Positions 15,256 to 27,237 of a DNA stretch of 64,000 nt are shown here, in pieces (the first letter of the stretch is position 1; each line of letters starts with the position of its first letter). The translations under genes were made by a program, and so were the position numbers. Under the pieces are notes generated by a model. That model was not told the origin of the DNA and made no database searches. It saw nothing but the letters and a program-made list of their open reading frames with translations. Source of the stretch: a virus (taxonomy: Duplodnaviria; Caudoviricetes); IMG/VR virus record IMGVR_UViG_3300044678_002325, positions 1-64,000 of that record. The stretch is one strand, 5' to 3'.

Positions 15256-15271
15256 AATGAATTTTTAAATT

Positions 15272-15346: not shown

Positions 15347-15354
15347 AATAAGAG

Positions 15355-15440
15355 TGGGTGCCGAGGGATTCGAACCCCCAAGTTTAGCACGTGGCAACTG
15401 ATTTACAGTCAGCATCCTTCACCAATTTGGATAGACACCC
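15355..15440 (-). tRNA. tRNA-Tyr(GUA)
   Basis: GCTGA-CTGTAAA-TCAGT; long variable arm. Confidence 0.92.
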
Positions 15441-15712
15441 TTTTACAACTTACAAGTTCTACTACAAATAGAACTTAACCCAAATGGTCGACATTTCAAT
15501 CGTAAAGTTTTCAACCCGTTACACAGGTGTTCACTTATTTAAGTCCACCTAACACTAATATTATGTAGTCAGATTCCCAACCTGTTAATTTAATACCCAT
15601 TTGTAGTGCAAGTATTATAAAACTACTATATTAGACGCTACTCAACTTCCATTAGATTGCTTTAGTTCGATTATTTTACTAATCAGTTACCGCCATTAGT
15701 TAAGTTGTTTAG

Positions 15713-15787
15713 TTGCAAGAGTGGGAGTCGAACCCACATGGTACGGCTTATGAGACCGAGCTGGAACCACCTCCAGTCCATCTTGCA
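15713..15787 (-). tRNA. tRNA-Met(CAU) (possibly initiator-type)
   Basis: CGGT-CTCATAA-GCCG; atypical D arm. Confidence 0.8.
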
Positions 15788-15796
15788 ATTTGTTTG

Positions 15797-15868
15797 ACGC
15801 AAGGGTGGGAATCGAACCCACAGCTTCTAGGTTATGAGCCTAGCGGACGACCGTTGCCCTTCCTTGCA
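15797..15868 (-). tRNA. tRNA-Met(CAU)
   Basis: CTAGG-CTCATAA-CCTAG. Confidence 0.85.
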
Positions 15869-15878
15869 TAATGTTTTG

Positions 15879-15951
15879 TACACCATACGGGATTTGAACC
15901 CGTGACTCCTCCGTGAAAGGGAGGTGACTTATACCCCTTGTCGAATGGTGC
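15879..15951 (-). tRNA. tRNA-Glu(UUC)
   Basis: CCTCC-CTTTCAC-GGAGG. Confidence 0.93.
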
Positions 15952-15966
15952 GTTTTTATTGTATCA

Positions 15967-15998
15967 CAAAATTACGATTTGATTTTCTTAATTCCAAA
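15967..15998 (-). promoter_or_regulatory. Bacteroidetes primary-sigma promoter
   Basis: TTTG-N20-TAATTTTG. Confidence 0.75.
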
Positions 15999-16019
15999 TC
16001 TTTTTTAAACTTTTTTTTG

Positions 16020-16103
16020 TACCCAGGGCGGGACTCGAACCCGCACAACCTTACTGGTCACAAGATTTTAAGTCTTGCGTGGCTACCATTACACCACCTA
16101 GGC
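16020..16103 (-). tRNA. tRNA-Leu(UAA)
   Basis: CAAGA-CTTAAAA-TCTTG; long variable arm. Confidence 0.95.
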
Positions 16104-16287
16104 AAAATAAAGAGAAGTTTTGAATAAGAACTCTCCACTTCTCTTTTTGATATCTTGTATTCGTTATGGTGAATATCAAGTCACCATAATATAACTTATG
16201 TTGCCTTCGTCCGCCCTAATTGACAATAAGTAAACTCCTTAGAACGTAAGTCACATCTTAATCTCGTGACATAGATATTATTTTAAT

Positions 16288-16434
16288 TTACCACCAATGA
16301 CCAATATCAGTCATATCATCCCACCATTTTGCTACCCAAGAATCTGGATATTTTTTTATGATATAGTTACCAATAAAACCCAAAAGCATTATAAAAATAG
16401 CAAGAATAATAAAGTTTATCATAAAGTTTGTCAT
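16288..16434 (-). CDS. Small membrane protein (48 aa)
   Basis: MTNFMINFIILAIFIMLLGFIG...WW*; downstream of ECF-like promoter. Confidence 0.55.
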   Translation of the reverse strand: MTNFMINFIILAIFIMLLGFIGNYIIKKYPDSWVAKWWDDMTDIGHWW

Positions 16435-16460
16435 AATCTATTTTTTTAAGTTACATTATT

Positions 16461-16491
16461 ATAAACCAACCTTCATCTCATTTAGTTCCAA
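16461..16491 (-). promoter_or_regulatory. ECF-sigma-like promoter, copy 2
   Basis: TTGGAACTAAATG-N11-GGTTTAT. Confidence 0.6.
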
Positions 16492-16508
16492 CTTTTAAAA
16501 CTTTTTTT

Positions 16509-16583
16509 TGGCGGTACCAAGGGGAATCGAACCCCTACCATAAGAGTGACAACCTTATATTCTTGCCGTTAAACTATGGTACC
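16509..16583 (-). tRNA. tRNA-Asp(GUC)
   Basis: TAAGG-TTGTCAC-TCTTA; G73; CCA encoded. Confidence 0.93.
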
Positions 16584-16615
16584 AAATATTTTTCCCTCAA
16601 TTTCAATGAACATCA

Positions 16616-16647
16616 CAAAGATACAATTACTAATTCACATTTTCAAA
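16616..16647 (-). promoter_or_regulatory. Bacteroidetes primary-sigma promoter followed by boxA-like GTTCATTGAAAT
   Basis: TTTG-N20-TATCTTTG. Confidence 0.65.
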
Positions 16648-16654
16648 CACTCTC

Positions 16655-16690
16655 AAAAAAAAATCCATCTTTTTTTAGGAAGATGGATTT
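16655..16690 (-). terminator. Attenuator terminator of tRNA block B
   Basis: AAATCCATCTT-CCTAAAAA-AAGATGGATTT plus T run. Confidence 0.8.
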
Positions 16691-16717
16691 GATTTTATTA
16701 ACAATTAAAACCTTATA

Positions 16718-16789
16718 TCATACCATCTCCATCCGAGGATTTCTACCCTCAGCTCCAGTCGTTAAGTCCATATAGAGATTGTGTTTCAT
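16718..16789 (-). CDS. Putative leader peptide B (MKHNLYMDLTTGAEGRNPRMEMV)
   Basis: 23-codon ORF just upstream of the terminator; its 3' GGAGATGG is complementary to the terminator 5' arm CCATCTTC. Confidence 0.75.
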   Translation of the reverse strand: MKHNLYMDLTTGAEGRNPRMEMV

Positions 16790-16850
16790 TTGTGAAGTTT
16801 TTACTATTTTTTTATTAAATATAACGATATAATACAAAAGGTCAAGTTGG

Positions 16851-17168
16851 TTACAAAAATTGTGAAATAATTTGTGCTACTTTATACCCTGTGAATGCTC
16901 CTAATGCCGCTGAACCAGGTAAAACAATGAATTTACCAAAATTACTTTCATATTTCGCACGATTAACAATATAAGATATTAAGATATAATATAAGAAAAA
17001 ATTAATCAATACGGCAAGATCAATTTCTTTGGCCATAAACACAACTATTGAATTACCAAAGAAACCCCAACTGAAGTTAATCAATGTTTCTCTTATTAAT
17101 TCACTAACAGATGTCTTAGCATCGGCTACCTTAATTTCTTTTGTAAATATATTTTTTTTCTTTTTCAT
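16851..17168 (-). CDS. Membrane protein
   Basis: Three hydrophobic segments. Confidence 0.65.
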   Translation of the reverse strand: MKKKKNIFTKEIKVADAKTSVSELIRETLINFSWGFFGNSIVVFMAKEIDLAVLINFFLYYILISYIVNRAKYESNFGKFIVLPGSAALGAFTGYKVAQIISQFL

Positions 17169-17170
17169 AA

Positions 17171-17686
17171 CTATTCTAAAATATCCCCAAATCCGTTCTC
17201 ATCCAACCAATCCTTATCATCATTTATGTCTTTTAATTCATATTCAAACGCGAATATATTACATACAACATCGTCAGCACTTGAAAAAGTTTCGTGAATA
17301 AAATCAAAATCATCTGGTTCTAATTGAAACTTTTCTTTCTTTAAACATTTGAATAATTCCTTTGATGTTTTGAAAACATTAGGAGTTGTATAAGTTTTTA
17401 ATCTACCCTCCATTTCCATATGTTCAAATTTCTTATAGAATTTATCATTAAACACCAAGATGTTTTCAGTTCCCCATTCATTTAGAACTTGCATTATAAA
17501 TGTTTTTAACCCTTGAAAACATGCTGTACGATAGTCATCAAATTGTTGTTGAACGGAGACATCCCCAAATTCAACTTCACTTGTTTCCTTTTCGTGTTCG
17601 GCAATTTTATCCAATGCCATTAGTTGGAGTTGTTCCCATGTCGTATCATAGGGTTTATAGAAATTCACAATTACCATTGGTGTCAT
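17171..17686 (-). CDS. Hypothetical protein
   Basis: ORF track. Confidence 0.65.
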   Translation of the reverse strand: MTPMVIVNFYKPYDTTWEQLQLMALDKIAEHEKETSEVEFGDVSVQQQFDDYRTACFQGLKTFIMQVLNEWGTENILVFNDKFYKKFEHMEMEGRLKTYTTPNVFKTSKELFKCLKKEKFQLEPDDFDFIHETFSSADDVVCNIFAFEYELKDINDDKDWLDENGFGDILE

Positions 17687-17695
17687 ATTTTTTTG

Positions 17696-18079
17696 TTAAA
17701 TAAATTCATTCTTATAAGTATGAAACTCAGTATCAAATTGACTATAATCTTCAAATAATTCTTCCCCAATTTGGATATCTTTATTTGAAATTATTATTTC
17801 CCCCACAACATCTAAATTTGGATTGTAACTATGATTAATAAAGTTAGTTAAGTCACAAGAGGAATAATAAAACCCATCATCTTCCTTCCACCCATATTTT
17901 TCAAAAAATTCTTTTTGAGCTTCGTTCAATTTATTGAATGTCGTTTCATCCATTTTAATATCCACACCTTCCACGAATTCCCAAACTATAGTTCCTTTTG
18001 GGATAAATTCTTTTGTGAATAAACCTAAGTCCATTTCAGGATTAGTTGCTATTTTAACTTCTACTTTATATAAAAACAT
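17696..18079 (-). CDS. SET-domain protein
   Basis: GLFTKEFIPKGTIVWEF, FINHSYNPN, DIQIGEELFEDY. Confidence 0.88.
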   Translation of the reverse strand: MFLYKVEVKIATNPEMDLGLFTKEFIPKGTIVWEFVEGVDIKMDETTFNKLNEAQKEFFEKYGWKEDDGFYYSSCDLTNFINHSYNPNLDVVGEIIISNKDIQIGEELFEDYSQFDTEFHTYKNEFI

Positions 18080-18082
18080 ATC

Positions 18083-18715
18083 TTAATTATTATCATAAAA
18101 CATATAATCAGAATCCTCAGTTTGCCATTTCTCGAACCCCTCACAATTATAATAATCCTTATTCACCAAATAATCTGGCTTCTCAGGGAAAGATTTTGTG
18201 ACAAAGGATGGTTCTGCCCATTTTATTCTATTATTTGGTTGTAGGGCAATCTGGCCATTATTCAGTAGTATTATGTGGTGTGATTTATGTTCCATTGGAT
18301 CCTCAGCCAAAGTAAAGTCACTATTCAAATCACTAGAACCCCAATTTATTGTGGCATAATAACTTCCATCATACCATTTCTTATCTTTCATAAAGACTGA
18401 AACTTTGGTATCATAGATATAACTTAAATGATGTACCGAGAAATTGTATGAAAAACAATTCCATATTTGAAGATAATGGAATGGTAAATCAACATCAGGT
18501 GATTTGGGTTCAGTTAATAATGCGTGAGATGGAAGTTTATCTCTCATAACACCATTATTAAATAATACTTGGAATAATGCCGCTTGTCCTGGTAAACATC
18601 TAATTGAGATTATAACACCCTCAGTAAATTCACCAAATCCCTTCTTATTTTGATATAGATATTCATTTCGAACATATACCTTTAAGGGGAAAAAATTACT
18701 TTCAATATAAGCCAT
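18083..18715 (-). CDS. Conserved phage hypothetical protein
   Basis: YVRNEYL...LQIWNCFSY...EHKSHH...ALQPNNRI pattern. Confidence 0.7.
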   Translation of the reverse strand: MAYIESNFFPLKVYVRNEYLYQNKKGFGEFTEGVIISIRCLPGQAALFQVLFNNGVMRDKLPSHALLTEPKSPDVDLPFHYLQIWNCFSYNFSVHHLSYIYDTKVSVFMKDKKWYDGSYYATINWGSSDLNSDFTLAEDPMEHKSHHIILLNNGQIALQPNNRIKWAEPSFVTKSFPEKPDYLVNKDYYNCEGFEKWQTEDSDYMFYDNN

Positions 18716-18717
18716 AA

Positions 18718-19038
18718 TTAATTTGTTGGTATGTCATTTGTTCCATACTCTCTTATCAAATAGTCGGTAAAATTTTCCACACTTTCAACATTAAATTCAA
18801 TTTTATCGTGCCAAATCTTTTTTTCAATTTTTTCATACAACCACCAACCAACTAAATCCTGTATCCATCCGTATTGTTCGTCTTTTTCTTTTCTGAGGAT
18901 GGTCGGAATGGACTTCTCAAGTTGCGAAATGGTGTTGTCAAAGTCAAGTAAATCAACTCCCATAGTATAGAGCTTGTGTACCTTCTCATCTTGTTCTTTG
19001 ATTTTTGTTAATGTTTCGATTATGTAATCCCTTACCAT
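18718..19038 (-). CDS. Hypothetical protein
   Basis: Start trimmed to MVRDY (the longer ORF overlaps tRNAs). Confidence 0.6.
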   Translation of the reverse strand: MVRDYIIETLTKIKEQDEKVHKLYTMGVDLLDFDNTISQLEKSIPTILRKEKDEQYGWIQDLVGWWLYEKIEKKIWHDKIEFNVESVENFTDYLIREYGTNDIPTN

Positions 19039-19069
19039 AATAAATAGTTTTAATTGTTGATAAAATTTG

Positions 19070-19142
19070 CATAGATGGAGGGACTCGAACCCCCAACCGG
19101 CTGGTTTGGAATCAGCAACTCTACCAATTGAGCTACATCTAC
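19070..19142 (-). tRNA. tRNA-Trp(CCA)
   Basis: GCTGA-TTCCAAA-CCAGC; G73. Confidence 0.92.
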
Positions 19143-19151
19143 ATTTGTTTG

Positions 19152-19236
19152 AGGTTGGGGAGGGATTCGAACCCACGATGAATTTTCATTCGATAGTTTT
19201 GCAGACTAGTGCCTTAACCAACTCGGCCACCCAACC
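19152..19236 (-). tRNA. tRNA-Cys(GCA) with long variable arm
   Basis: TAGT-CTGCAAA-ACTA; U73; 16-nt variable region. Confidence 0.88.
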
Positions 19237-19258
19237 CTATTGTTTCTTTTTATATTAC

Positions 19259-19717
19259 CTATAACTCAATAAAGATATCATAAGTTCCATTTTCATAGTA
19301 ATTTGTTGAACAATTTCTTAATATGATACCATCATAATTTTTTTCAATTAACATTTCTTTATATTTGTCAACCCCACCGAATTTGTATATTTCATCCATA
19401 TAAACTTGAAATGAGTCATAATCTTCATCATCTGAATTAACAACATATGGATTTTCAAATTTTATTTCTTTAGTTAAAATCTTACCCTTAGAACCTTTTA
19501 TATTTTCATATCTATCAGTATCAACAGAATAATCAATAAGTCCAGCAAACCATTTGGCCATAGTTAAATTATCTGTCCAAAATACACCCATTCCATCATC
19601 AGATACTTTACCATAGGTAGCGTTAATTCTATCTCCAATACCACGATATACTATAGTATAATTTTCAAATTCTTCTTTTAAAATTGTTTTAATACGTATT
19701 CTTAAATCTTTCATCAT
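19259..19717 (-). CDS. Putative ADP-ribosyltransferase-fold (ART-PolyVal-like) protein
   Basis: VYRG...GVFWTDN...A.WFA...NPYV...YDGII pattern; N-terminal IKTILKEE motif. Confidence 0.55.
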   Translation of the reverse strand: MMKDLRIRIKTILKEEFENYTIVYRGIGDRINATYGKVSDDGMGVFWTDNLTMAKWFAGLIDYSVDTDRYENIKGSKGKILTKEIKFENPYVVNSDDEDYDSFQVYMDEIYKFGGVDKYKEMLIEKNYDGIILRNCSTNYYENGTYDIFIEL

Positions 19718-19953
19718 TTTTTTACTATAAATATATTAAATCCCCCAACTTCACCCCACTCGTCAGTGGGGGATAGGTTGAGTTAAGCTTCCTAACTTAT
19801 ACCTTGGGCTATTCGTTTACAAGCAACAAGACCACAGTAGTGAGCAGTTCTTATGGGATGCCTCGTGGTACTATTATAACATAAAGAACAATTACCTACT
19901 AGCACCTCACACCGAAATTGTAGGCAGGCTCGGTCCCTTAATTGTTCAAATCT

Positions 19954-20202
19954 TTATTTCACGATTGTCTGTATTCCCAAATCTTTGGGGTGTTTTCCAC
20001 TTAGTTTATGAGTCACAGACCCATCACAAGTTGTAAAATACTTGTATCCTTTATCCCAAAATCGATAGACCTTACATCCATCAACTTTAAATAGAAGCTC
20101 AACGTTATAATTCGCATTATCTGTTTTTAGTTCTTCTATACCTTCTCTTTGACAACTAAGGAATAATACAGAAATTAATCCAAGGAATAATATTTTTTTC
20201 AT
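19954..20202 (-). CDS. Lipoprotein (DUF4884-like)
   Basis: LFLS-C lipobox; VELLFKVDGCKVYRFWD. Confidence 0.7.
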   Translation of the reverse strand: MKKILFLGLISVLFLSCQREGIEELKTDNANYNVELLFKVDGCKVYRFWDKGYKYFTTCDGSVTHKLSGKHPKDLGIQTIVK

Positions 20203-20231
20203 CGTTTTTGTAATTTAAAAATTATTTAATG

Positions 20232-20316
20232 TGTCCTTACCTAGATTCGAACTAGGATTATACTTCTCGTCTCCACTTTGTAAGAGTGGGATGTTTAACC
20301 ATTACACCATAAGGAC
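20232..20316 (-). tRNA. tRNA-Val(UAC) with long variable region
   Basis: CCACT-CTTACAA-AGTGG; 16-nt variable region. Confidence 0.85.
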
Positions 20317-20513
20317 TATTTATAAAAGAATGATTGGGCTATACTGATAATTGTACTCCAATAGAACCGAGACCGCGTATCTTAGTTACCTTTCCTAGTT
20401 TACAGTCAAAGTCCTGAACTTTCGTACCATCCTTAATTTTTATTTTCAGACCCATAATGTCAAAAAATATGTCTACTATTTTCTAATAACACCTTTCGTA
20501 ACTTATTGTGTTG

Positions 20514-20588
20514 TGACCCTGGGGAGATTTGAACTCCCGCTCCCAATATTAAAAGTATTGTGCTTTAAACCAGCTAAGCTACAGGGTC
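20514..20588 (-). tRNA. tRNA-Lys(UUU)
   Basis: CAATA-CTTTTAA-TATTG. Confidence 0.93.
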
Positions 20589-20801
20589 ATTTGTTATTTT
20601 TTTAAGTGAGTTACATCTACATAACACATTGAAGTAATGAATTGGTTCTATATGGTAGTTATTTTTTTCATCCAAATAAATCACCACTTCCATATCCACA
20701 ATTGCTCTAATTTCGATGTGTTTATTGTTTGGATTATCTTCACTATAATCAATAAACAACTTATCACCAACCTTAAATTCACCAATTTTTACATTAACCA
20801 T
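20574..20801 (-). CDS. Hypothetical protein
   Basis: ORF between tRNAs; 3' end overlaps tRNA-Lys. Confidence 0.5.
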   Translation of the reverse strand: MVNVKIGEFKVGDKLFIDYSEDNPNNKHIEIRAIVDMEVVIYLDEKNNYHIEPIHYFNVLCRCNSLKKITNDPVA

Positions 20802-20817
20802 AATTTATTAAAATTTG

Positions 20818-20891
20818 CGTCCCAGGTAGGATTCGAACCTACGATCACTCGATTAACAGTCGAGAGCTCTAAACCACTGAGCTACTGAGAC
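20818..20891 (-). tRNA. tRNA-Asn(GUU)
   Basis: CTCGA-CTGTTAA-TCGAG; G73. Confidence 0.95.
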
Positions 20892-20899
20892 ATTTGTTG

Positions 20900-20974
20900 T
20901 TGTCCTGGTGAGGCTCGAACTCACGACTTTTCGCGTATCAGACGAATACTCTAAACCAACTGAGTTACAGGACA
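20900..20974 (-). tRNA. tRNA-Ile(GAU)
   Basis: TTCGT-CTGATAC-GCGAA. Confidence 0.92.
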
Positions 20975-20989
20975 TTGTTAAAATTGTTG

Positions 20990-21063
20990 TGGTTCCACTA
21001 GGACTTGAACCTAGAACCTACCGATTATGAGTCGGGTGCTCTAACCAATTGAGCTATAGAACC
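20990..21063 (-). tRNA. tRNA-CAU, probably Ile2 (lysidine)
   Basis: CCGA-CTCATAA-TCGG; body resembles ileX-type tRNAs. Confidence 0.8.
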
Positions 21064-21076
21064 TTTAAAAATCTTG

Positions 21077-21148
21077 TATAGGTGACTGGGATTGAACCAG
21101 CGACCACTAGTTCCCAAAACTAGCACTCTACCTCTGAGCTACACCTAT
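21077..21148 (-). tRNA. tRNA-Pro(UGG)
   Basis: CTAGT-TTTGGGA-ACTAG. Confidence 0.92.
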
Positions 21149-21308
21149 ATTATTAAACCATATATAAATCCAAACAAAAGAACAATTAGAAATATAATTC
21201 CAACTATAAACAAGTCTGAGTTCTTTGTTTTGTAAGACAAAATTAAGAATAAGATTCCAATTATCAAAAATAAAAGACCAATAATTACTAACATTTTTTA
21301 ATTTTTTG

Positions 21309-21402
21309 TAGTCCTGACAGGATTCGAACCCGTAACGTACATCTCATATCTTTGATGCAAGCACTTGATAATAGCTGCGTCTACCAATTCCGCCACAGGA
21401 CT
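21309..21402 (-). ncRNA. tRNA-like RNA (AGTCCTG family)
   Basis: Perfect acceptor, D and T arms; irregular anticodon arm plus extra hairpin. Confidence 0.75.
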
Positions 21403-21614
21403 ATATTTAACTTATCTAAAATTTTCTCATATTTACAAAACAACAATCCAACTTTTTAGGTCTATCTATGTCATCTCTACCGTCAATTCTTGATTTTATA
21501 TAGTCAAAGATTTCTTTTTGTTCATCAGCGTTTAAACTATTGTTGATAGTTTCAATTCTAATCTCAAATCTTACCCAATAATGTGTGTCCATAATTTTAG
21601 TTTTTAATTTTTAG

Positions 21615-21744
21615 TAGTCCTGACAAGATTCGAACTTGTATTAAGCTACATATTGTTTATGTTAGACCTTTCGCTCCAATCCTAGTATTAAGGAGTGTCT
21701 GAACATTCAATCTTCACTCTACCCTTAACTTTCGCCACAGGACT
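21615..21744 (-). ncRNA. tRNA-like RNA (AGTCCTG family), 130 nt
   Basis: AGTCCTG/CAGGACT-A acceptor and ACAAG-TTCGAAT-CTTGT T arm enclosing a long irregular hairpin. Confidence 0.7.
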
Positions 21745-21753
21745 ATTGTATCA

Positions 21754-21785
21754 CAAAATTACGATTTCATTTTCTAATTTCCAAA
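21754..21785 (-). promoter_or_regulatory. Bacteroidetes primary-sigma promoter
   Basis: TTTG-N20-TAATTTTG directly upstream of a tRNA-like RNA. Confidence 0.75.
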
Positions 21786-21898
21786 CACTTTGGAATATTT
21801 TTCTTCATTTAATATGATTAGGTGGGTCGCTCATCTCCACTGTCTGCATTCCTTTGAGTTATGAACTCAACTGCTCTAATCTTATTAATATTTTTCTG

Positions 21899-21985
21899 CG
21901 GAGGACAGAGGACACGAACCCCACACCATACTTGGTGCCACTCGCTTAGCAGGCGGTGGTAACGACCCTGATTACTTTATCCTCC
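21899..21985 (-). tRNA. tRNA-Ser(GCU)
   Basis: CGC-CTGCTAA-GCG; long variable arm; G73. Confidence 0.85.
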
Positions 21986-21990
21986 AATTG

Positions 21991-22143
21991 TTAAATCCTT
22001 TTTCTTGAATTTTCTAAAATTGTTATTCCTAATAGAATTATACCAAGTACAATAAGTGTGTTAGGTGTACCTATTAATTTTGGAAGGGGCAAAAGAATAC
22101 TAAGCACAAAACCGAAAATCAAGATGAACAATAAATTTCTCAT
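21991..22143 (-). CDS. Small two-TM protein (50 aa)
   Basis: MRNLLFILIFGFVLSILLP...; downstream of ECF-like promoter. Confidence 0.55.
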   Translation of the reverse strand: MRNLLFILIFGFVLSILLPLPKLIGTPNTLIVLGIILLGITILENSRKRI

Positions 22144-22179
22144 TTTTTTAAACTTTTAATTGTTTCTAAATTCATTTAC

Positions 22180-22210
22180 ATAAACCCCTTCCCTTACCAT
22201 TTAGTTCCAA
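22180..22210 (-). promoter_or_regulatory. ECF-sigma-like promoter, copy 3
   Basis: TTGGAACTAAATG-N11-GGTTTAT. Confidence 0.6.
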
Positions 22211-22240
22211 GATTTAATTTTTTTTTGTGGTATCTAAGTT

Positions 22241-22486
22241 TTAAATTAATTCATCTGTCGGCATACAATACATAATGAATCGGTGTGAACCATACTCATT
22301 TTCGTAATAATAACTTCCTTGATTTACCTCATCATTATTGGGTTCAAACATTATGTATTTAGAAGTGGGGTCAACACCAATTCCCATATATTTGTCTAAT
22401 AATTCCAACACTCTTTGAAGGGTTGTTGCGGAACAAATAGGTATCCCCCATTTTTCGTGAACAATAAAATACATTGTATTTTTCAT
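22241..22486 (-). CDS. Hypothetical protein (paralog of 13070-13342)
   Basis: Shared motif pattern. Confidence 0.65.
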   Translation of the reverse strand: MKNTMYFIVHEKWGIPICSATTLQRVLELLDKYMGIGVDPTSKYIMFEPNNDEVNQGSYYYENEYGSHRFIMYCMPTDELI

Positions 22487-22509
22487 ATTTGTTATTTTAA
22501 ATTTTTTTG

Positions 22510-22582
22510 TAGTCCCAGCCCGATTTGAACGGGCATCTTATCATCCGTAGTGATAGATTCTAATCCATTGAACTATGGGACT
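22510..22582 (-). tRNA. tRNA-Arg(ACG)
   Basis: TATCA-CTACGGA-TGATA; acceptor AGTCCCA/TGGGACT. Confidence 0.9.
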
Positions 22583-22592
22583 AAATTTGTTG

Positions 22593-22679
22593 CGGAAAGT
22601 TGAGGTGTCGATCCCCATACAATACAATTGTACCTATCGTTTTCAAGACGTAGACCCAGGCCGCTGAGCTTAACTTTCC
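22593..22679 (-). tRNA. tRNA-Ser(UGA)
   Basis: CGT-CTTGAAA-ACG; long variable arm; G73. Confidence 0.85.
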
Positions 22680-22742
22680 AATTTATTTTTTTAATGTAAT
22701 TAGACTTTATTATTTAAATGATATTTATAGTAAAACAAATTT

Positions 22743-23006
22743 ATGAAAAAGATAGTAAGATTAACAGAATCAGATTTAATTAGACTGGTTAAAAGAGTAA
22801 TTAATGAAGACAACTTGAAAGAGTTTGGTTCACGTAAAGATTATGAACATGAAAAAAGCTGGAATACCAAATCTCCAAAAGTATACGATACTCAAAACCC
22901 AGAACAAGATGATGACACTAAAACAATTATGGATTACATTAAAAAATTATTCGGATTAGGTTTAAAACCTAAAGAAATTAGAAAAAAATTAAAAGAATTG
23001 GAATAA
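22743..23006 (+). CDS. MKKIVRLTESDL-motif protein
   Basis: N-terminal repeat-family peptide; TATTTATA upstream. Confidence 0.75.
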   Translation: MKKIVRLTESDLIRLVKRVINEDNLKEFGSRKDYEHEKSWNTKSPKVYDTQNPEQDDDTKTIMDYIKKLFGLGLKPKEIRKKLKELE

Positions 23007-23018
23007 TCTTTATTTAAG

Positions 23019-23091
23019 TAGGTATGATGAGAATCGAACTCACTAAACCAACATCCACAATGTTGTCCCTCTCCATTTGGGTTCATACCTC
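23019..23091 (-). tRNA. tRNA-His(GUG)
   Basis: CAACA-TTGTGGA-TGTTG; encoded G-1, A73. Confidence 0.88.
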
Positions 23092-23268
23092 ATATAATCC
23101 ATTTTCAGATGGTTTTTTGTCCATCTTCTCTGCGAGTTCCTTTTTGCTGATGTCGTTTTCACGCAATAGCTGATTGGTGCGAACCACCAGGTCGGCATAC
23201 CAATCTACAAAGATTTCTACATCTTTCGGTGTGCTTTTCAGCAATCTATCTACGGTTTTGCTTCTCAT
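23083..23268 (-). pseudogene. Truncated XRE-family HTH (antitoxin-like) fragment
   Basis: ...LLRENDISKKELAEKMDKKPSE breaks off before the recognition helix; GC higher than flanks. Confidence 0.55.
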
Positions 23269-23283
23269 TGTCTTATAGTTGTT

Positions 23284-23359
23284 TGGTGGTGGGAGTAGGA
23301 ATCGAACCTACATTAAATAATCTTCAGCTATTCGCCTTGACCAACTTGGCAATCCCACC
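23284..23359 (-). tRNA. tRNA-Phe(GAA)
   Basis: AATAG-CTGAAGA-TTATT; CCA encoded. Confidence 0.9.
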
Positions 23360-23364
23360 ATAAT

Positions 23365-23559
23365 TTATATTTGATTACCTTCTTTTAAAGTTGAAGACAT
23401 TTCACTACCATCCCCAAATTCTTGGTAAAAATAAACAAACATTTTTCCATTAATGTCAGTTCCTTTATGTAAAATTCTTGTGACTTTTTTTAGTTTACCA
23501 AACATATTTGGAATAACATCCCCAACTTCAAGATTTAAAATTTGATTTTTAGTAATCAT
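23365..23559 (-). CDS. Hypothetical protein
   Basis: ORF track. Confidence 0.55.
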   Translation of the reverse strand: MITKNQILNLEVGDVIPNMFGKLKKVTRILHKGTDINGKMFVYFYQEFGDGSEMSSTLKEGNQI

Positions 23560-23659
23560 AAAATAAATATTTTAAGTATGAAAAAATTTAGAGTAAGTAT
23601 CCACCACGTTTAAGGCTGGTTGTGGACAGTGCTACCTACGACCTTTCCTTACTCTCCCA

Positions 23660-23691
23660 CAAAATTACAACCCTTTATTTTTATTTCCAAA
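23660..23691 (-). promoter_or_regulatory. Bacteroidetes primary-sigma promoter
   Basis: TTTG-N20-TAATTTTG. Confidence 0.7.
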
Positions 23692-23767
23692 TGTTTTATC
23701 AAGTTTTTTTTAAAGTGGTCAAATTTAACCATTTTAAACTACACCATATTTATGATAAAATAGAATT

Positions 23768-24517
23768 ATGAAAATTATAATTAATGAATCCCAATATAAA
23801 ACAATCCTTAAAGAATTTATGGGTTCAATTGAATCAAGTAAGTTTATGAAAATTTTTAAAAAATTTTTGGAGGATAAAAATATTGTTATACTTTATGATG
23901 ATTTTAGAGAATTTACAATGCACACAAGTATAAAAATACCTAAAACAAACTTTGATGATTATCTAACCATATTTTCAGAGATTGAAAAATTTATTGAAAT
24001 TTATGGGTGGTTTATTTCAAGTTATTTAGTGATTTATAATCACCCTAATACATCAATTTATGATGAAAAGGACATTAAATTCTTAGATTATAGAAAATTA
24101 GTTGATTGGCTAAAAACGAATGAGTCAAATATCCAACTAAAACATATAATGTTAAATTTAGAAAAAAAATACACAGAACAAAATAAAGGCCATAATGTTT
24201 TTTACCACGTAACAGATAAGAAAAACACTGAAAAAATAATGACTTATGGATTAAGACCTAGAAAATCACAAAATAAATATTTCAATTATTCTGATAGAAT
24301 TTACCTAGCTGATTATGTCAAAGTAGCTTATTATATAAACGACCTTTTTAAAGATCCTAACGCCAAAACTGATTATGGTAAAGAAGGTGTTGTCGTATTT
24401 GAAATTACCTTACCTGATTCATTTAAAACTTATTTTGACCCAAAAGCACCATTGTCATCCTATACCTTAGAACCAATACCACCTAAATATATAGAAATTT
24501 ACGATTATCTAGATTAG
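23768..24517 (+). CDS. MKIIINESQ-motif protein with C-terminal ART-fold (Tpt1/KptA-like) domain
   Basis: FYHVT...I...GLRP...IYL...VVFEI...IPPKYI pattern. Confidence 0.65.
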   Translation: MKIIINESQYKTILKEFMGSIESSKFMKIFKKFLEDKNIVILYDDFREFTMHTSIKIPKTNFDDYLTIFSEIEKFIEIYGWFISSYLVIYNHPNTSIYDEKDIKFLDYRKLVDWLKTNESNIQLKHIMLNLEKKYTEQNKGHNVFYHVTDKKNTEKIMTYGLRPRKSQNKYFNYSDRIYLADYVKVAYYINDLFKDPNAKTDYGKEGVVVFEITLPDSFKTYFDPKAPLSSYTLEPIPPKYIEIYDYLD

Positions 24518-24520
24518 ATG

Positions 24521-24593
24521 TTCCCCCTGATGGAATTGAACCACCATCCTCAGAACCAAAATCTGATGTAATAAGCCTTTATACCAAGGAGGA
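24521..24593 (-). tRNA. tRNA-Gln(UUG)
   Basis: TCAGA-TTTTGGT-TCTGA; U1-A72. Confidence 0.9.
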
Positions 24594-24623
24594 TTATATT
24601 TTACCAACGATGTCAAAGAACAC

Positions 24624-24656
24624 AAAAAAACCCTGAACGTCTTTTGTCCAGGGTTT
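24624..24656 (-). terminator. Attenuator terminator of tRNA block A
   Basis: AAACCCTGGAC-loop-GTTCAGGGTTT plus T run; followed by boxA-like GTTCTTTGACAT. Confidence 0.8.
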
Positions 24657-24684
24657 GTATAAAAAATTAATATTTTTTTTACCA

Positions 24685-24780
24685 TCACGAGATTCCACCT
24701 GAACCATAAGAATCCGCTGACCAACAATTTTTAAATTGCGGTTGCACTGAATTACTAATATGGTTTATCGATGTTCTCAT
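24685..24780 (-). CDS. Putative leader peptide A (MRTSINHISNSVQPQFKNCWSADSYGSGGIS)
   Basis: 31-codon ORF after a TATTTATA motif; contains GTTCAGG, identical to the terminator 3' arm and so an alternative partner for CCTGGAC. Confidence 0.78.
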   Translation of the reverse strand: MRTSINHISNSVQPQFKNCWSADSYGSGGIS

Positions 24781-24828
24781 TTTTGTTATTTGTTTATAAA
24801 TATCACTAAATTATTAAAAAGTTTGGTT

Positions 24829-24880
24829 CGGAATGATTTTTTAAGATATGCTGTCTTTTTTAAGTTGCTGAACTCATTCG
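24829..24880 (-). ncRNA. CWGCAA-motif RNA, copy 3
   Basis: GAATGA-GTTCAGCAA...AAAAA-TCATTC. Confidence 0.65.
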
Positions 24881-24896
24881 TTATAACCTTAATTGT

Positions 24897-24955
24897 CAGG
24901 ATAGTTTTTGTTCAATTTGACTAAATTTGATATTTTAATTTGCTGAATCTATCCT
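24897..24955 (-). ncRNA. CWGCAA-motif RNA, copy 2
   Basis: GGATAG-ATTCAGCAA...AAAAA-CTATCC. Confidence 0.65.
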
Positions 24956-25010
24956 TTGTTCTATATAACGTAAATTTAATTTAAAAGTTTCATTAAGTCA
25001 AGAAAAAATA

Positions 25011-25195
25011 GGAAAAATTGGTTTCAGAATGGGTTTTTGGTTAGTAATTTATTCCCGTGCGATTAGGAAAGTGAGACTAACCCCCCTCCTTATCAGAGGG
25101 TGACAGGGTTTGAACCTGTCCTCGTATCCATTGTGATAGTAATTGATTTGTTGTGTTAACTTTGCAGTAATCATTCCTTTTAAACCAATTTTTCC
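25011..25195 (-). ncRNA. CWGCAA-motif RNA, copy 1, with tRNA-like module (Y-RNA/YrlA-like)
   Basis: 14-bp closing stem GGAAAAATTGGTTT/AAACCAATTTTTCC; T arm ACAGG-TTCAAAC-CCTGT followed by two hairpins. Confidence 0.65.
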
Positions 25196-25202
25196 ATTTT
25201 TT

Positions 25203-26609
25203 TTAAACTTCTATCATCTTGTATCTTTCGGACTCAATGGTTTCGGTCATAATTAATATTGGTGATAGTTCTTTTCCACCAAGAATTGACTTCAAGATTG
25301 ATGGACTAAAACCAGATATTAACGCTGTACCACTTTCATCAAAACGAACAGGGAAGTTATCTCCTCTCGATTGTATGTTCCAAAAGATAATACCAGGTAG
25401 TTGATATCCACTATTCTCATATTCTTCACGAATCATTTGAATTGCGGAATTATTACGACCAGTTGCTTGATTAAATTCCATATCTGATAAGATAAGGATT
25501 TTAGTCGGCATCTCACTTTGAGGTACATTGTGTTTAATTGATTGGTTTAGAATCAATTTGAACACAGACTCCAAGTTTGTACTCATACCCCAATCGGCAG
25601 CACGTAGTTGTGTGTATCTATCATATAGATTACCACTCAACTTTTGTAATTGTGGTCTCTCAGAGAATGTTATGAAAGAGTCTTTAAAAGAACCTTCATT
25701 TCTTTCTGAAATATACAATCCCAATGATACTGCAACATCCATACAAGTTAGATTATTGTTTTTTCCTGCAGAACCACTAACCATTGAACCTGATACATCA
25801 ACTACTGGTAAAATTCTTTCAGTACTTCCTTCCATAAAGTTGGGGAGAGCTTTCCATTGTTCTATTGCCAAATCTTTGACACCTTGTTCCAAAGTTTTAA
25901 CAACATCATATGGATATACAGCCCCAGCATTTACTTTGGTCTCACCTTTTTTCAATGATTCCAAGTATTCTCCAAAACCAGTTAAATTGTGTTTAGAGAA
26001 TGCTTTGGTGTATCGAGCCATAGCCAAAGATGGTACTTTTGAGTATTCAATATTTGTCCACTCGTTAGCACACATCTTTTGCTCGACCGTTTTGGAAAGA
26101 ACAACCAAAGTTTTACGTAATGATTTTGGTGTAAGACCCATAACCTTCCTGATTGAGTTAAAAATAACTCCTTTTCTTGGCATCCACTTTGCACATAGTC
26201 CATTTTTGGCTTCTAAACCTTGTACTATTGTGTCAATCGCATCGTCATTCACTTTTGTGTTGAATAGGACTGTAAGATCGTCCCAACGACCGAATTCAGG
26301 GATGAATTTAATATTCTTTGCCAATACTTTTGGGGCCACCTCTGCTAAGAGTTGGATTATATCACGGAATATTTGTCTTTCACCAGCACCACCACGAACA
26401 TCTCTTGCCCAAAATAATATACGCAATGCAGTTTTAGGACTCTCAATGAAAGCCTTTGAGAATAGACTTAACAATCTTTCTTTGTCTTGTCCTCTCATTG
26501 CTCCAATGGTGAAGAATAGATTCACACACTCGTTAAGAGTTGATGAATTTGTAACCATACCATTTTCAGTTAAGGTATCTTCTGTCTGTAATGCGTCTAA
26601 GAAGTTCAT
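25203..26609 (-). CDS. Ro60/TROVE-like protein with C-terminal vWA domain (DUF2828 family)
   Basis: TENG, ARDVRGGAGER, FGRWDDL, AKWMPR; vWA MIDAS VDVSGSM, ILSDMEF, IFWN. Confidence 0.85.
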   Translation of the reverse strand: MNFLDALQTEDTLTENGMVTNSSTLNECVNLFFTIGAMRGQDKERLLSLFSKAFIESPKTALRILFWARDVRGGAGERQIFRDIIQLLAEVAPKVLAKNIKFIPEFGRWDDLTVLFNTKVNDDAIDTIVQGLEAKNGLCAKWMPRKGVIFNSIRKVMGLTPKSLRKTLVVLSKTVEQKMCANEWTNIEYSKVPSLAMARYTKAFSKHNLTGFGEYLESLKKGETKVNAGAVYPYDVVKTLEQGVKDLAIEQWKALPNFMEGSTERILPVVDVSGSMVSGSAGKNNNLTCMDVAVSLGLYISERNEGSFKDSFITFSERPQLQKLSGNLYDRYTQLRAADWGMSTNLESVFKLILNQSIKHNVPQSEMPTKILILSDMEFNQATGRNNSAIQMIREEYENSGYQLPGIIFWNIQSRGDNFPVRFDESGTALISGFSPSILKSILGGKELSPILIMTETIESERYKMIEV

Positions 26610-26674
26610 AATATTCTGTTTTTGAATTTGTTTTGAAAGTATATGATTAATACTTTGGTTTGTCAAGTGAAATT

Positions 26675-26866
26675 TTAAATATTTGTTTTAAATTTTTCAT
26701 TCAAAATATCAAAAAGTTTATTGATATTGTCAATTTCTTTTTGATAAAAATTTTTGACCTCCTCGTGTTGTGATTTGTTCATCTCATCAATAAAATGATT
26801 TCTTAACATCATAGAATGAGACGTTAATAATACAAATTCATCTTGGTTTAACTTTAAATTTTTCAT
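26675..26866 (-). CDS. Hypothetical protein
   Basis: ORF track. Confidence 0.5.
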   Translation of the reverse strand: MKNLKLNQDEFVLLTSHSMMLRNHFIDEMNKSQHEEVKNFYQKEIDNINKLFDILNEKFKTNI

Positions 26867-27237
26867 TTTAAATCTTGTATTTGAATTAAATAATTTGTTA
26901 CTTCTTCTGGTTTTAGATATCCAAGAACATCACTAGTAATTGGGGTATCATAAGTTAATTTTCCATCATTATCAAGTATGGCCAATTCATATAAACCTAT
27001 ATGACCACCATATGAATGTGTAGTACGAATTACTGAAGCACCATACCCATTTTCAAACATAATTTTACCAGCAACACCTGCCCAATTAGGCTGGAAATCA
27101 ATATCCTCAAATGTTTTGTAATGTAAATCACAAAGTTCAATTAATTTATTGACACTAAGTCCAAATTGTTCTGATGTGTTGATTAAACCATCAGTTTCAA
27201 TGTTTGATTTTATGGCATCAAGTGTTTTCTGTTTCAT
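26863..27237 (-). CDS. Conserved phage hypothetical protein
   Basis: FENGYGASVI...SYGG..GLYELAIL...DVLGYL motif. Confidence 0.7.
   Translation of the reverse strand: MKQKTLDAIKSNIETDGLINTSEQFGLSVNKLIELCDLHYKTFEDIDFQPNWAGVAGKIMFENGYGASVIRTTHSYGGHIGLYELAILDNDGKLTYDTPITSDVLGYLKPEEVTNYLIQIQDLK

Follow-up and report, generated by a model that had tools for sequence, protein, structure and literature searches.

Leader ORFs listing the codons of downstream tRNAs, with the anatomy of transcription attenuators, ahead of two tRNA gene blocks in a phage genome

The DNA analysed here (the window) comprises positions 1 to 64,000 of virus record IMGVR_UViG_3300044678_002325 (Duplodnaviria; Caudoviricetes), a phage whose host is presumed to belong to the Bacteroidota. 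The record is a 78.75-kb contig, and the label "jumbo" that had been applied to the phage is therefore not shown for this record. Two tRNA gene blocks lie on the minus strand, each headed by a short ORF, an intrinsic terminator and a conserved motif. The features of the unit heading block A are as follows.

24795-24803, minus strand: promoter-like motif ATATTTATA, 23 nt upstream of the leader A ATG and containing TATTTATA
24685-24780, minus strand: leader A ORF, 31 codons and TGA
24718-24771, minus strand: putative sensor run of leader A (codons 4-21), made up of block A codon boxes only and covering 13 of 14 species
24759-24765, minus strand: segment 1 (AACCATA), partner of 24708-24702 in the minimum free energy (MFE) fold of the untranslated leader
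24698-24708, minus strand: segment 2, the predicted antiterminator strand
24621-24656, minus strand: intrinsic terminator A, an 11-pair stem followed by a T run (terminator scan)
24610-24621, minus strand: conserved motif GTTCTTTGACAT, between terminator A and tRNA-Gln and kept in relatives
24520-24593, minus strand: tRNA-Gln(UUG), which opens block A
19069-24593, minus strand: tRNA block A (Gln, Phe, His, Ser(UGA), Arg(ACG), Ser(GCU), a tRNA-like element, Pro, a CAU tRNA that may be Ile2, Ile, Asn, Lys, Val, Cys, Trp)

The corresponding features of block B are the following.

16818-16845, minus strand: promoter-like site TTGACC-16-TATATT upstream of leader B, identified by consensus match only (10 of 12 positions)
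16718-16789, minus strand: leader B ORF, 23 codons and TGA
16742-16777, minus strand: putative sensor run of leader B (codons 5-16), made up of block B codon boxes only and covering 10 of 10 species
16661-16690, minus strand: intrinsic terminator B
16600-16611, minus strand: second copy of the conserved motif, GTTCATTGAAAT
10404-16583, minus strand: tRNA block B (Asp, Leu(UAA), Glu, two Met, Tyr, Gly, Ala, Thr, tRNA-like elements, Arg(UCU), Leu(UAG))

An original prediction, made from the letters of the sequence, had placed a leader-peptide attenuator of the trp/his type at the head of block A, with codons that list the tRNAs of the block. The ORF (24780-24685), the terminator (stem 24656-24628, hairpin energy -14.8 kcal/mol) and tRNA-Gln were all located on the minus strand in the order claimed. 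The heptamer GTTCAGG near the end of the ORF, said to be identical to the terminator 3' arm, was confirmed at 24704-24698, and the competing hairpin proposed for the same region was present as a GGATTC/GAATCT pairing in the fold of that segment. Exact copies of terminator A were carried by five viral contigs. The promoter-like sites of the two leader ORFs lie 23-30 nt upstream; that of leader A, ATATTTATA, also stands 20-26 nt ahead of the ATG in many long ORFs of the contig (e.g. those of 299, 482, 262, 392, 455 and 489 aa) and was kept as ATA(T/C)TTATAAAC in 7/7 aligned relatives. The leader starts share with this phage's real genes the promoter motif and an A-rich, Shine-Dalgarno-free context; of 91 long ORFs, just one has a Shine-Dalgarno core.

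The content of block A, given earlier as 14 tRNAs, was largely reproduced: 12 of the 14 were called by ARAGORN at default settings, and tRNA-Ser(UGA), at 22592, appeared solely at the threshold -ps80. Rfam returned no match at this gene; clear homologues with anticodon UGA occur at the equivalent place in relatives. At 21308-21402, default ARAGORN also reported an atypical tRNA-like element of 95 nt, absent from the earlier list. The CAU tRNA at 20989 was called Met by ARAGORN and is probably Ile2, because sister contigs hold tRNA-Ile(UAU) at that place. Within block A the tRNAs are interspersed with protein genes on both strands, and an earlier caveat concerning plus-strand genes and internal promoters proved to be real (plus-strand genes 23768-24517 and 22743-23006; promoter-like motifs at 23570 and 19734); these features may uncouple the distal tRNAs from the attenuator. 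A conserved non-coding element at 19740-19940 belonged to no Rfam family (one chance-level match).

All codons of the run 4-21 of leader A had been said to be decoded by block A tRNAs, to cover 13 of the 14 species and to omit CGN. Each of these points held, leader A having no CGN codon despite the presence of tRNA-Arg(ACG) in the block. Over the whole leader, 22 of 30 codons fall in block A boxes with a longest pure run of 18; the figures for leader B and block B are 15 of 22 and 12. When all pure runs in the six frames of the 78.75-kb contig were ranked at the codon-box level by the number of species covered, the leader A run came first of 37,485 (13 species, against 11 and 10 for the next), and in the same scan the leader B run came first of 34,751. 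Under strict wobble a length of 18 codons was reached by 2 of 39,049 pure runs, and the one outside the leader covers 8 species. More than 11 species were covered by leader A alone among 495 small ATG ORFs. In a simulation based on contig codon usage, none of 200,000 random 30-codon peptides reached 13 species; the match of leader B was reached by simulation in 1 of 200,000. The correspondence between leader codons and downstream tRNAs is real and lies far beyond chance.

Folding was calculated with and without a ribosome mask. Of eight leaders in the family of the window, seven pair the terminator 5' arm with the 3' part of the ORF in the MFE fold available before the 3' arm exists; in leader B the partner of the 5' arm is codons 21-23. 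With the mask on sensor codons the antiterminator had a probability of 0.56-0.89, and in 10 of 11 leaders this fell no more than about two codons away from the end of the listed run, drop positions being compared by eye with the run ends since an automatic 0.8-of-maximum rule failed for three leaders with lower-scoring first codons. In leader A the antiterminator is not the MFE structure of the 2:3 segment and was seen only with the mask: without a ribosome the terminator 5' arm was paired upstream with a probability of 0.03, and the mask profile has a dip at codons 17-20. In these predictions the antiterminator at the 3' end of the ORF becomes masked shortly beyond the last codon of the list. 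At equilibrium several leaders form the antiterminator without any ribosome (0.56-0.88). With the ribosome on the stop codon it also persists in part (0.64 in L018, 0.52 in L027). Both observations suggest that the off state would rest on kinetics. Taken as a whole, the units present a short ORF behind a putative promoter, a terminator before the genes, a predicted antiterminator overlapping the ORF end and codons tied to the genes behind, as in an attenuator, although the tie is to tRNA genes and not to a biosynthetic pathway.

Relatives were drawn from metagenomic contigs of up to 362 kb and were searched, as had been suggested, for an upstream ORF and terminator before tRNA arrays and for codons that co-vary with the tRNAs; both were found. 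Leader A was kept in place and in frame in 15/15 relatives that have tRNA-Gln after a Ro-like gene, and leader B was kept in L002, L003, L017, L092, L099, L116, L117, L181 and L218. The ORF, its frame and the distance from stop codon to terminator persist while the identity of the neighbouring protein falls from 96% to 59%. Across clades the frame is kept (A-type leaders of 31, 31 and 35 codons, B-type leaders of 22-24), synonymous changes occur, and substituted codons remain within the set of the block. All nine distinct terminators lying at most 250 nt before a tRNA (85 loci and the contig) are preceded by exactly one ATG ORF of 23-36 codons that ends 18-28 nt before the stem; for comparison, an ORF stands at that distance from 3 of 18 other minus-strand terminators of the contig. 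A scan with 15-mers returned mostly unrelated contigs and showed the combination of terminator and ORF at 16 places only. At the array heads of more distant relatives, no such unit was found within 360 nt in 8 of 11 cases.

The co-variation is seen most readily in G003, which has three units. Block 1 carries tRNA-Tyr and its leader has a Tyr codon; block 2 carries Lys, Val, Asp, Thr, Met and Gly tRNAs, all of which are listed by leader 2; and block 3 carries Leu(UAA), Glu and Arg(UCU), leader 3 having a run of seven codons for these three only. Similarly, L198 has both a tRNA-Arg(UCU) gene and an AGR codon in the sensor, and its close relative L172 has neither. In 17 leader-array pairs the number of tRNA boxes unlisted by the leader was 0 or 1 per block, examples being tRNA-Leu(UAA) in L014 and Ala in leader 2 of G003. 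When arrays were shuffled among the 11 distinct leaders, the observed match was reached in 0 of 100,000 trials. Shuffles confined to one type reached it in 8 of 24 cases for A-type leaders (not significant) and 3 of 120 for B-type leaders, a test of limited force, since the other arrays are subsets of those in the window.

Units of the same kind, at least seven of them, were found in LR745206.1, an unrelated published huge-phage genome of 635 kb; the lineage of the window has relatives among the huge phages described by Al-Shayeb et al. 2020. The leaders of LR745206.1 are unrelated in sequence to those of the window and include tandem codon runs, one leader having seven Gln codons before three tRNA-Gln genes. 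For seven leader-array pairs the true pairing was the single best of 5,040 permutations, with one tRNA box in one block unlisted, and the masked-fold drop was seen in 8/8 leaders. These units seem to have gone unnoticed: in the main text of Al-Shayeb et al. 2020, which reported LR745206.1, there are 0 occurrences of "attenuat", "leader" and "terminator".

The second unit, the conservation, the co-variation, LR745206.1 and the masked antiterminator all support the proposal of a trp/his-type leader attenuator that lists the tRNAs of its own block. Most probably, each of the two tRNA blocks of this phage is gated by a leader-peptide attenuator of transcription, in which the ribosome serves to sense the supply of tRNA. 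We infer that the leaders are translated, that this is coupled to transcription, which way the switch turns and what sets it off in nature; host anticodon nucleases and starvation were the original prediction's guesses at the trigger. In the proposed mechanism, a phage promoter a few bases upstream would start transcription into the short ORF, and a ribosome would translate the leader while RNA polymerase advances to the terminator, which lies 18-28 nt beyond the stop. Almost every tRNA species of the block is represented in mid-ORF by one to three codons. Where decoding is fast at each of these, the ribosome would enter the last 8-10 codons and cover the near copy of the terminator 3' arm, so that the terminator folds and the tRNA genes stay silent. 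If any listed tRNA is scarce, the ribosome would wait at its codon, leaving the copy free to pair with the terminator 5' arm, and polymerase would read through into the block. Each unit would then act as an OR gate whose inputs are the tRNA species of the block it heads, and the phage tRNAs made by read-through would close it again in a feedback loop.

A broader reading, to which we incline with less assurance, is that huge phages of Bacteroidota carry a modular homeostat in which each tRNA sub-cluster stands under its own "test-strip" leader, which lists the anticodons of that sub-cluster alone; shortage of any listed species would open this sub-cluster only, and the tRNAs then made would close it. 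Such shortage could arise from host codon-usage mismatch, from phage-driven loss of host tRNA or from host anticodon nucleases, and leaders would swap codons as tRNA genes move among clusters.

The best-surviving alternative is that the units are ribosome-dependent attenuators responding to the overall capacity for translation or to amino-acid charging, as under starvation or a shortage of ribosomes, and not to the supply of the particular tRNAs encoded downstream. The same anatomy would be expected, codons of other blocks occur at both ends of the leaders, and some leaders list many codons that have no tRNA behind them (own-block codons make up 7 of 30 in G001_A and 8 of 32 in L027, where arrays may have decayed or contigs may be partial). 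Such a sensor would nevertheless give no reason for the middle codons to be limited to the unit's own block or to change as tRNAs move, and extra tRNA would presumably bring no relief from amino-acid starvation; we consider it improbable.

A second alternative holds that the terminators simply close the transcription units before them, the short ORFs arising as by-products in AT-rich spacer without being translated. The Ro-like gene does stand about 550 nt ahead of terminator A, and five successive protein ORFs precede terminator B; the region shows no excess of terminator-like hairpins (7, against a shuffle mean of 8.0). Against this stand the frame, length and distance of the ORFs, kept in divergent relatives and in an unrelated genome, a codon content that is the most extreme in the contig and tracks the tRNAs, and a promoter-like site belonging to each ORF, and the idea was rejected as very unlikely.

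Equally slight odds were given to a T-box-like leader RNA that would bind tRNAs by codon-anticodon pairing with no ribosome, for which the matching of codons to anticodons and the presence of a terminator/antiterminator pair might speak. A scan of positions 9000-27000 with Rfam at E up to 1 gave tRNA and antisense-of-tRNA matches only, with no T-box, other cis-regulatory or known leader family (His, Leu, Thr, Trp) at the leaders. The codons moreover stand in one ATG-opened frame whose stop keeps a constant distance, features that a sensor made of RNA alone could do without, and no precedent is known for as many as 13 distinct specifiers within 54 nt; this reading too was rejected. Small functional peptides whose composition reflects their function were dismissed as scarcely credible: an eight-residue core is kept among A-type leaders, but B-type leaders keep length and tail while the order and identity of middle residues are shuffled within the block's set, the nucleotides of the antiterminator segment are kept while residues change (segment 2 reads GGTTCGGG, GGTTTGGG or GGTTGGGG in relatives, the encoded residue varying S/S/L/W), and the unrelated leaders of LR745206 show the same match.

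Attenuation by the ribosome, the preferred reading, was compared with known systems. The phage units resemble the enterobacterial amino-acid attenuators (trp, his, leu, pheA; thr, ilvGMEDA) in having a promoter-proximal ORF, regulatory codons in mid-ORF, a terminator and an antiterminator at the ORF end that a ribosome can mask, and leader A also has the 1:2 pairing. Several kinds of codon are read in one leader in ilv and thr as well. The amino-acid attenuators, however, control biosynthetic enzymes and use tandem runs of one to three codon kinds, whereas the phage units precede, and would control, tRNA genes, list up to 13 kinds mostly once or twice, and have a codon set that equals the downstream tRNA set and changes with it. 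The pheST attenuator of E. coli (pheM leader) likewise ties part of the translation apparatus to the speed at which its cognate codons are translated; it controls a synthetase for one amino acid, and the phage units would control tRNA genes for many. T-box riboswitches likewise sense tRNA through a terminator/antiterminator switch, but they are ribosome-free, carry a single specifier codon together with the conserved T-box sequence, sense charging, and regulate synthetases and transporters. The large phage-borne array itself has counterparts in the tRNA clusters of T4, T5, KVP40-like and huge phages. No match to the leader regions was found among GenBank phages by megablast or blastn, and the literature searched contained no description of leader peptides or attenuators before tRNA genes or arrays. 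A possible precedent, an attenuator before E. coli pheU/pheV, was dropped, as it found no support in passages of two papers.

The control of tRNA gene expression in phages is hardly understood, and the reason for the near-complete tRNA sets of large phages is still debated. If the proposed mechanism is true, it would offer a direct and testable account in which decoding capacity is measured codon by codon and topped up cluster by cluster. It would extend classical attenuation from amino-acid supply to tRNA supply, as the first class of attenuator to sense and regulate the tRNA pool itself, and such units may also stand ahead of bacterial tRNA operons. The units would be natural sensors of the depletion of single tRNAs, useful for studying tRNA-targeting defence systems. 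The sequence rule that leader codons equal downstream anticodons would then serve to find such units in any genome and would help to define co-transcribed tRNAs.

The conserved post-terminator motif, GTTCTTTGACAT between terminator A and tRNA-Gln, resembles rrn boxA and is a putative boxA-like site; boxA, bound by NusB/NusE downstream of a promoter, takes part in antitermination in rRNA operons and phage lambda. Within the window, GTTCWTTGAMAT is matched exactly at 24610-24621 and 16600-16611 only, a count at chance level. A TTGACA within the boxA-like site was considered as the -35 element of a tRNA promoter and rejected on reading, as the sole -10-like hexamer lies 11 nt off and overlaps the first base of the tRNA. 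In relatives the conserved motif stays with the first tRNA and not with the promoter.

The window forms the first 64 kb of a source contig of 78,750 bases (29.6% G+C). All of its tRNA genes were located by ARAGORN on the minus strand, from 24593 to 10404, and calls by ARAGORN (default settings) and Rfam were concordant for most of them. Just two minus-strand terminator-like sites were detected inside the tRNA region by the terminator scan, and since the second lies before tRNA-Asp, the first gene past a 2.5-kb stretch of protein ORFs, the sequence itself splits the array into blocks A and B. Rescanning confirmed the order of ORF, terminator and tRNA-Gln and the codon match described in the original prediction.

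Features of the two leader-terminator units and tRNA blocks (all minus strand)
24803-24795: promoter-like motif ATATTTATA, its first base 23 nt from the ATG of leader A
24780-24685: leader A, ORF of 31 codons with ATG start and TGA stop, peptide MRTSINHISNSVQPQFKNCWSADSYGSGGIS
28 nt: AT-rich spacer between the leader A stop and the hairpin
24656-24621: terminator A, 11-pair hairpin then T run (terminator scan)
24621-24610: motif GTTCTTTGACAT after terminator A (read from the sequence)
24593-24520: tRNA-Gln, first gene of block A (ARAGORN)
24593-19069: tRNA block A, Gln to Trp, headed by terminator A
16789-16718: leader B, ORF of 23 codons ahead of terminator B, peptide MKHNLYMDLTTGAEGRNPRMEMV
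16690-16661: terminator B, 78 nt ahead of tRNA-Asp
16583-10404: tRNA block B, Asp to Leu-UAG, headed by terminator B

Block A serves 14 codon boxes and block B 10; with the two blocks combined, none of the 24 boxes or 61 sense codons is left unserved. Any codon can thus be classed as either "A" or "B", and the match can be tested cleanly. Two assignments in block A were less direct: tRNA-Ser(UGA), between His and Arg, was called by ARAGORN only at a lenient threshold (22592) and is a clear gene at that place in relatives, but was not recovered by Rfam, and the CAU tRNA (20989) is reasonably taken to decode ATA (Ile2), as sister contigs carry tRNA-Ile(UAU) there. On recount, leader A codons 4-21 were all A codons, as originally listed, and covered 13 of the 14 block A species, CGN alone being absent. 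A six-frame scan of the contig gave 37,485 pure-A runs, of which this one covered the most species (13; next 11 and 10); under strict wobble, 2 of 39,049 runs were as long, leader A's included, and the other covers 8 species. No other ATG ORF of 15-45 codons in the contig (495 in all) exceeded 11 species, and none of 200,000 random 30-codon peptides drawn from contig codon usage reached 13. Leader B codons 5-16 are B codons only and cover 10/10 block B species, the most of any of the 34,751 pure-B runs (runners-up 9 and 8) and a count equalled by 1 of 200,000 random peptides. When whole ORFs were counted with no run selected, the ratio of A to B codons was 22:8 in leader A and 7:15 in leader B. 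The contig's two most extreme runs thus directly precede the terminators of the matching blocks. By this test of leader composition against downstream tRNAs, proposed with the original prediction, the match of leader A with block A is confirmed not to be chance.

The leader ORFs look like genes of this phage in start context and promoter motif. ATATTTATA occurs 20-26 nt ahead of the start codon in many genes contig-wide, often directly after a terminator hairpin (e.g., 61687, 60683, 59188, 57386, 33809 and 2410 in a motif scan), and is probably the main promoter element of the phage, with very short 5' leaders; ATATTTAT(A) was likewise found 20-26 nt upstream of the ATG in many long ORFs and in leader A. 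Leader B is preceded by a promoter-like site (TTGACC, 16 nt, TATATT). A Shine-Dalgarno core was present in 1 of 91 long ORFs, and start regions, that of leader A included, are rich in A; translation starts without Shine-Dalgarno sequences are normal in Bacteroidota. The host was taken to be a Bacteroidota member because the nearest relatives of a 619-aa contig protein belong to metagenomic huge phages, 484-735 kb in size, and to Prevotella phages, and because leaders in more distant relatives are preceded by TAnnTTTG-type promoter boxes, which we take to mark Bacteroidota.

For comparison, 80 related loci (96% to 59% identity) were collected through the gene for the Ro-like protein, which lies upstream of leader A. 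Lack of conservation would have counted against the original prediction; an ORF at the place and in the frame of leader A was present in 15/15 loci with tRNA-Gln behind the Ro-like gene. Besides the window's own peptide, A-type leaders comprise a MKRSNKHNVISIQPQFSNCWIGTIYGSGIVS clade, in which a CGC codon in the leader accompanies tRNA-Arg-ACG, and a MKNFFKHINISVQPQFSNCWSKPSVCNGWGNSIEL clade, whose pure-A run is 26 codons long. Synonymous changes were seen, replaced first-half codons remain in the block's set, and the repeat of the terminator arm keeps GGTT, two variable bases and GG, the encoded residue varying (S, S, L, W). Leader B recurs in three loci (L002, L003, L017) and six further contigs, and in L009 and L011 it has a counterpart of equal length with a reshuffled middle, MKNYLYTGETLRAEDLNLRNGRV. 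In a survey of 85 loci plus the contig, 9/9 distinct terminators located up to 250 nt ahead of a tRNA had exactly one ATG ORF with its stop 18-28 nt before the stem, compared with 3/18 other minus-strand terminators of the contig with an ORF at that distance. Among array heads of more distant relatives, 8/11 were without a leader-terminator unit within 360 nt.

Some array heads differ in other ways. In L002 (about 18460-19040), L003 and L017 (17245-17828) an inserted gene of 91 aa separates terminator B from tRNA-Asp, and the GTTCATTGA motif there adjoins the tRNA, not the terminator. In L031, L032 and L074 the 100-200 nt ahead of the first tRNA hold no leader ORF but the 3' portion of an element resembling a tRNA or tmRNA, a hairpin with a T run, and the same GTTCTTTGAC motif.

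Co-variation of leader codons with tRNA content was followed in contig G003 (locus L021 and its continuation L086), which has three leader units, in two B-type variants found by a scan for the leader B tail, and in LR745206.1, a published but unannotated huge-phage genome of 634,780 bp with 61 tRNA matches in several clusters. Five stretches of the latter held eight terminators with a short ORF 17-33 nt before, the tRNAs behind being known for seven.

Leaders and the tRNA genes behind them
G003 leader 1, MITNNIHISNRNQWYQPCFINNGKGMLCVNGSEEII: Ile, Asn, Tyr, Trp, Phe, Pro, Gln, His, Ser-GCU, Ile-UAU, Arg-ACG, Cys (12/12 listed in the leader)
G003 leader 2, MKTTMTYKQGTVKTVDGKVDSLFYGHGLSYWSC: Ser-UGA, Asp, Val, Thr, Lys, Met, Ala, Gly, Leu-UAG, Trp (9/10 listed)
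G003 leader 3, MKNTNIISLLERLERFSLMEMV: block begins with just Leu-UAA, Glu, Arg-UCU; tail as in the window's leader B
B-type variant MKNLHIILLGGLAIAEDRSYMEMV: CAU, Ile-UAU, Gly, Ala, Glu, Asp, Leu
B-type variant MKNLHIISLRGLAGAEDTFCMEMV: Ile-UAU, Gly, Ala, Glu, Asp, Leu-UAA, Arg-UCU
LR745206.1, MTTTQQIQQQQINQTD: three Gln
LR745206.1, MNTITNIASYESYYEEGNLVRRNNYVVM: four Glu, two Tyr
LR745206.1, MKTINNTSKSSSRSSSMSEIRLYS: Arg-ACG, Ser-UGA
LR745206.1, MTTNSTHKNFSKSHKWFSNQSFGTESVLSLN: His, Phe, His, Phe, Trp, four Lys
LR745206.1, MKNLNNISIAVIGNGAGAIREWLSYGI: Ile-UAU, Gly, CAU, Gly, Ala, Gly, Ala
LR745206.1, MKTINVNIAPVNPQPQDQDPMRKANYVFMIS: Pro, four Asp, Pro, Pro
LR745206.1, MTTMNLNMTMNLTLNVVNITLCNIRPTEGSDLFREIVM: twenty tRNAs, for Asn, Arg-AGR, Leu, Val, Ile, Thr, Met

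Tyr, which belongs to block B and leader B in the window, is listed in G003 leader 1; the Lys and Val tRNAs of G003 block 2 have moved along with their codons, and the seven middle codons of leader 3 are only Leu-UUR, Glu and Arg-AGR. Of the two B-type variants, only that backed by tRNA-Arg-UCU has an AGR codon. Across 17 leader-array pairs, 0 or 1 tRNA boxes per block were unlisted by their own leader, and when arrays were shuffled among the 11 distinct leaders the observed number of matched codons was reached in 0 of 100,000 trials, the co-variation looked for in relatives thus being found. The observed match was reached in 3/120 shuffles of B-type leaders alone; for A-type leaders alone the figure was 8/24, short of significance, since the other A arrays are subsets of the window's block A. 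Counter-examples, besides the array heads without a unit, were contig G001, with leader A almost unchanged, only five tRNA boxes found behind it and 7/30 codons matched, and locus L027, with two boxes and 8/32. In LR745206.1, whose leaders gave no blastn match to the window's leaders and are not alignable with them, no other among the 5,040 permutations equalled the true leader-array pairing, in which a single tRNA box of one block was unlisted.

The end of each leader ORF contains a near copy of the terminator 3' arm. When RNAs were folded up to the terminator loop, with the 3' arm not yet made, the 5' arm paired with this copy in 7/8 leaders of the window's family. In leader A, codons 6-8 instead sequester the copy through 7 bp (24765-24759 with 24708-24702), a 1:2 pairing of the trp type, and at equilibrium with no ribosome the 5' arm is free (upstream pairing 0.03). 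A ribosome was then represented by masking 28 nt around each possible A-site codon, and the probability of the 5' arm being paired upstream was computed. With the mask on listed codons this was 0.56-0.89, and it dropped as the mask entered the last 8-10 codons. The drop, whose position played no part in defining the sensor runs, began no more than about two codons away from the last listed one in 10/11 leaders and was present in 8/8 leaders of LR745206.1. These folds support a model in which a ribosome stalled on listed codons would allow an antiterminator to form, giving read-through into the tRNA block, and smooth translation would mask the copy of the 3' arm, giving termination. The 18-28 nt gap between stop and stem would fit a ribosome on the stop codon abutting, not covering, the 5' arm. 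The mask-dependent drop agrees with the attenuator reading, but in the equilibrium model most leaders also formed the antiterminator with no ribosome present, and some formed it again with a ribosome on the stop codon, so the off state would have to be kinetic.

The attenuator reading of the original prediction has thus gained comparative and structural support (conservation, co-variation and ribosome-mask folds), and on sequence and modeling we consider it quite probable that the units are functional ribosome-mediated attenuators of tRNA blocks. They most likely belong to the mechanism class of classical leader-peptide attenuation. As far as found, tRNA genes as the target, the many-codon list and its co-evolution with tRNA content are undescribed: full-text searches returned no description of leader peptides before tRNA genes (older print accounts are possible) or of a multi-codon tRNA-pool sensor, as originally stated, and no use of "leader peptide" in the jumbo-phage and huge-phage papers that they listed; "attenuat", "leader" and "terminator" are absent from the accessible part of the main text of the paper reporting LR745206.1. 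Candidate natural triggers are host anticodon nucleases, loss of host tRNA and codon-usage mismatch. The tRNA region is flanked by genes for an RNA ligase (5881-6906, minus strand; phrog_968, E 4.9e-85) and the Ro-like RNA-binding protein (25203-26666, minus strand; phrog_850, DUF2828 and DUF7788), which fit a tRNA-damage theme and prove nothing.

Plus-strand genes and internal promoters had been anticipated inside block A, and two plus-strand ORFs converging on the tRNA genes were found (23768-24517, 249 aa; 22743-23006, 87 aa), each with its own ATATTTAT motif 22 nt ahead of the ATG and neither with a match in Pfam or PHROG. They are insertions, given a Gln-Phe gap of 159 nt in L003 versus 1.16 kb in the window. 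In LR745206.1, three leaders (L220, about 570-680; L222, about 590-700; L223, about 600-700) are preceded by ~90 nt of near-identical sequence, apparently a promoter cassette repeated at tRNA clusters, in which a TATATTTG box and a short hairpin stand upstream of the ATG.

At least five tRNA-like elements of the window (21308-21402, 11926-11996, 12708-12780, 12993-13064 and 12463-12607, minus strand) have an acceptor stem and T arm in common (AGTCCTG at the start, CAGGACTACA at the end). Their anticodon regions differ and are partly unreadable, some are 95-160 nt long, and the D arm presumably resembles that of tRNA-Leu; ARAGORN reported them as Asp(atc), "???" or intron-bearing, Rfam scored them at 30-44 bits, and none is mirrored in leader codons. 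Two tRNA-Ile-like genes with UAU and GAU anticodon loops, detected at lenient ARAGORN thresholds only, lie between Pro and Asn in L002 (13715-13899), L003 (14739-14920) and L006 (15007-15189); their layout is unusual in that the 5' part is short and the variable region contains a stretch resembling a D loop. About 150-200 nt of non-coding sequence is conserved (window 19740-19940, minus strand; L017 13908-14058); this element, for which no Rfam family was found, ends in a G-rich hairpin directly followed by a promoter-like motif. In block B of contig G002 (L087, reverse strand, 2570; L181), ARAGORN called a tRNA whose anticodon, UUA, might read the stop codon TAA.
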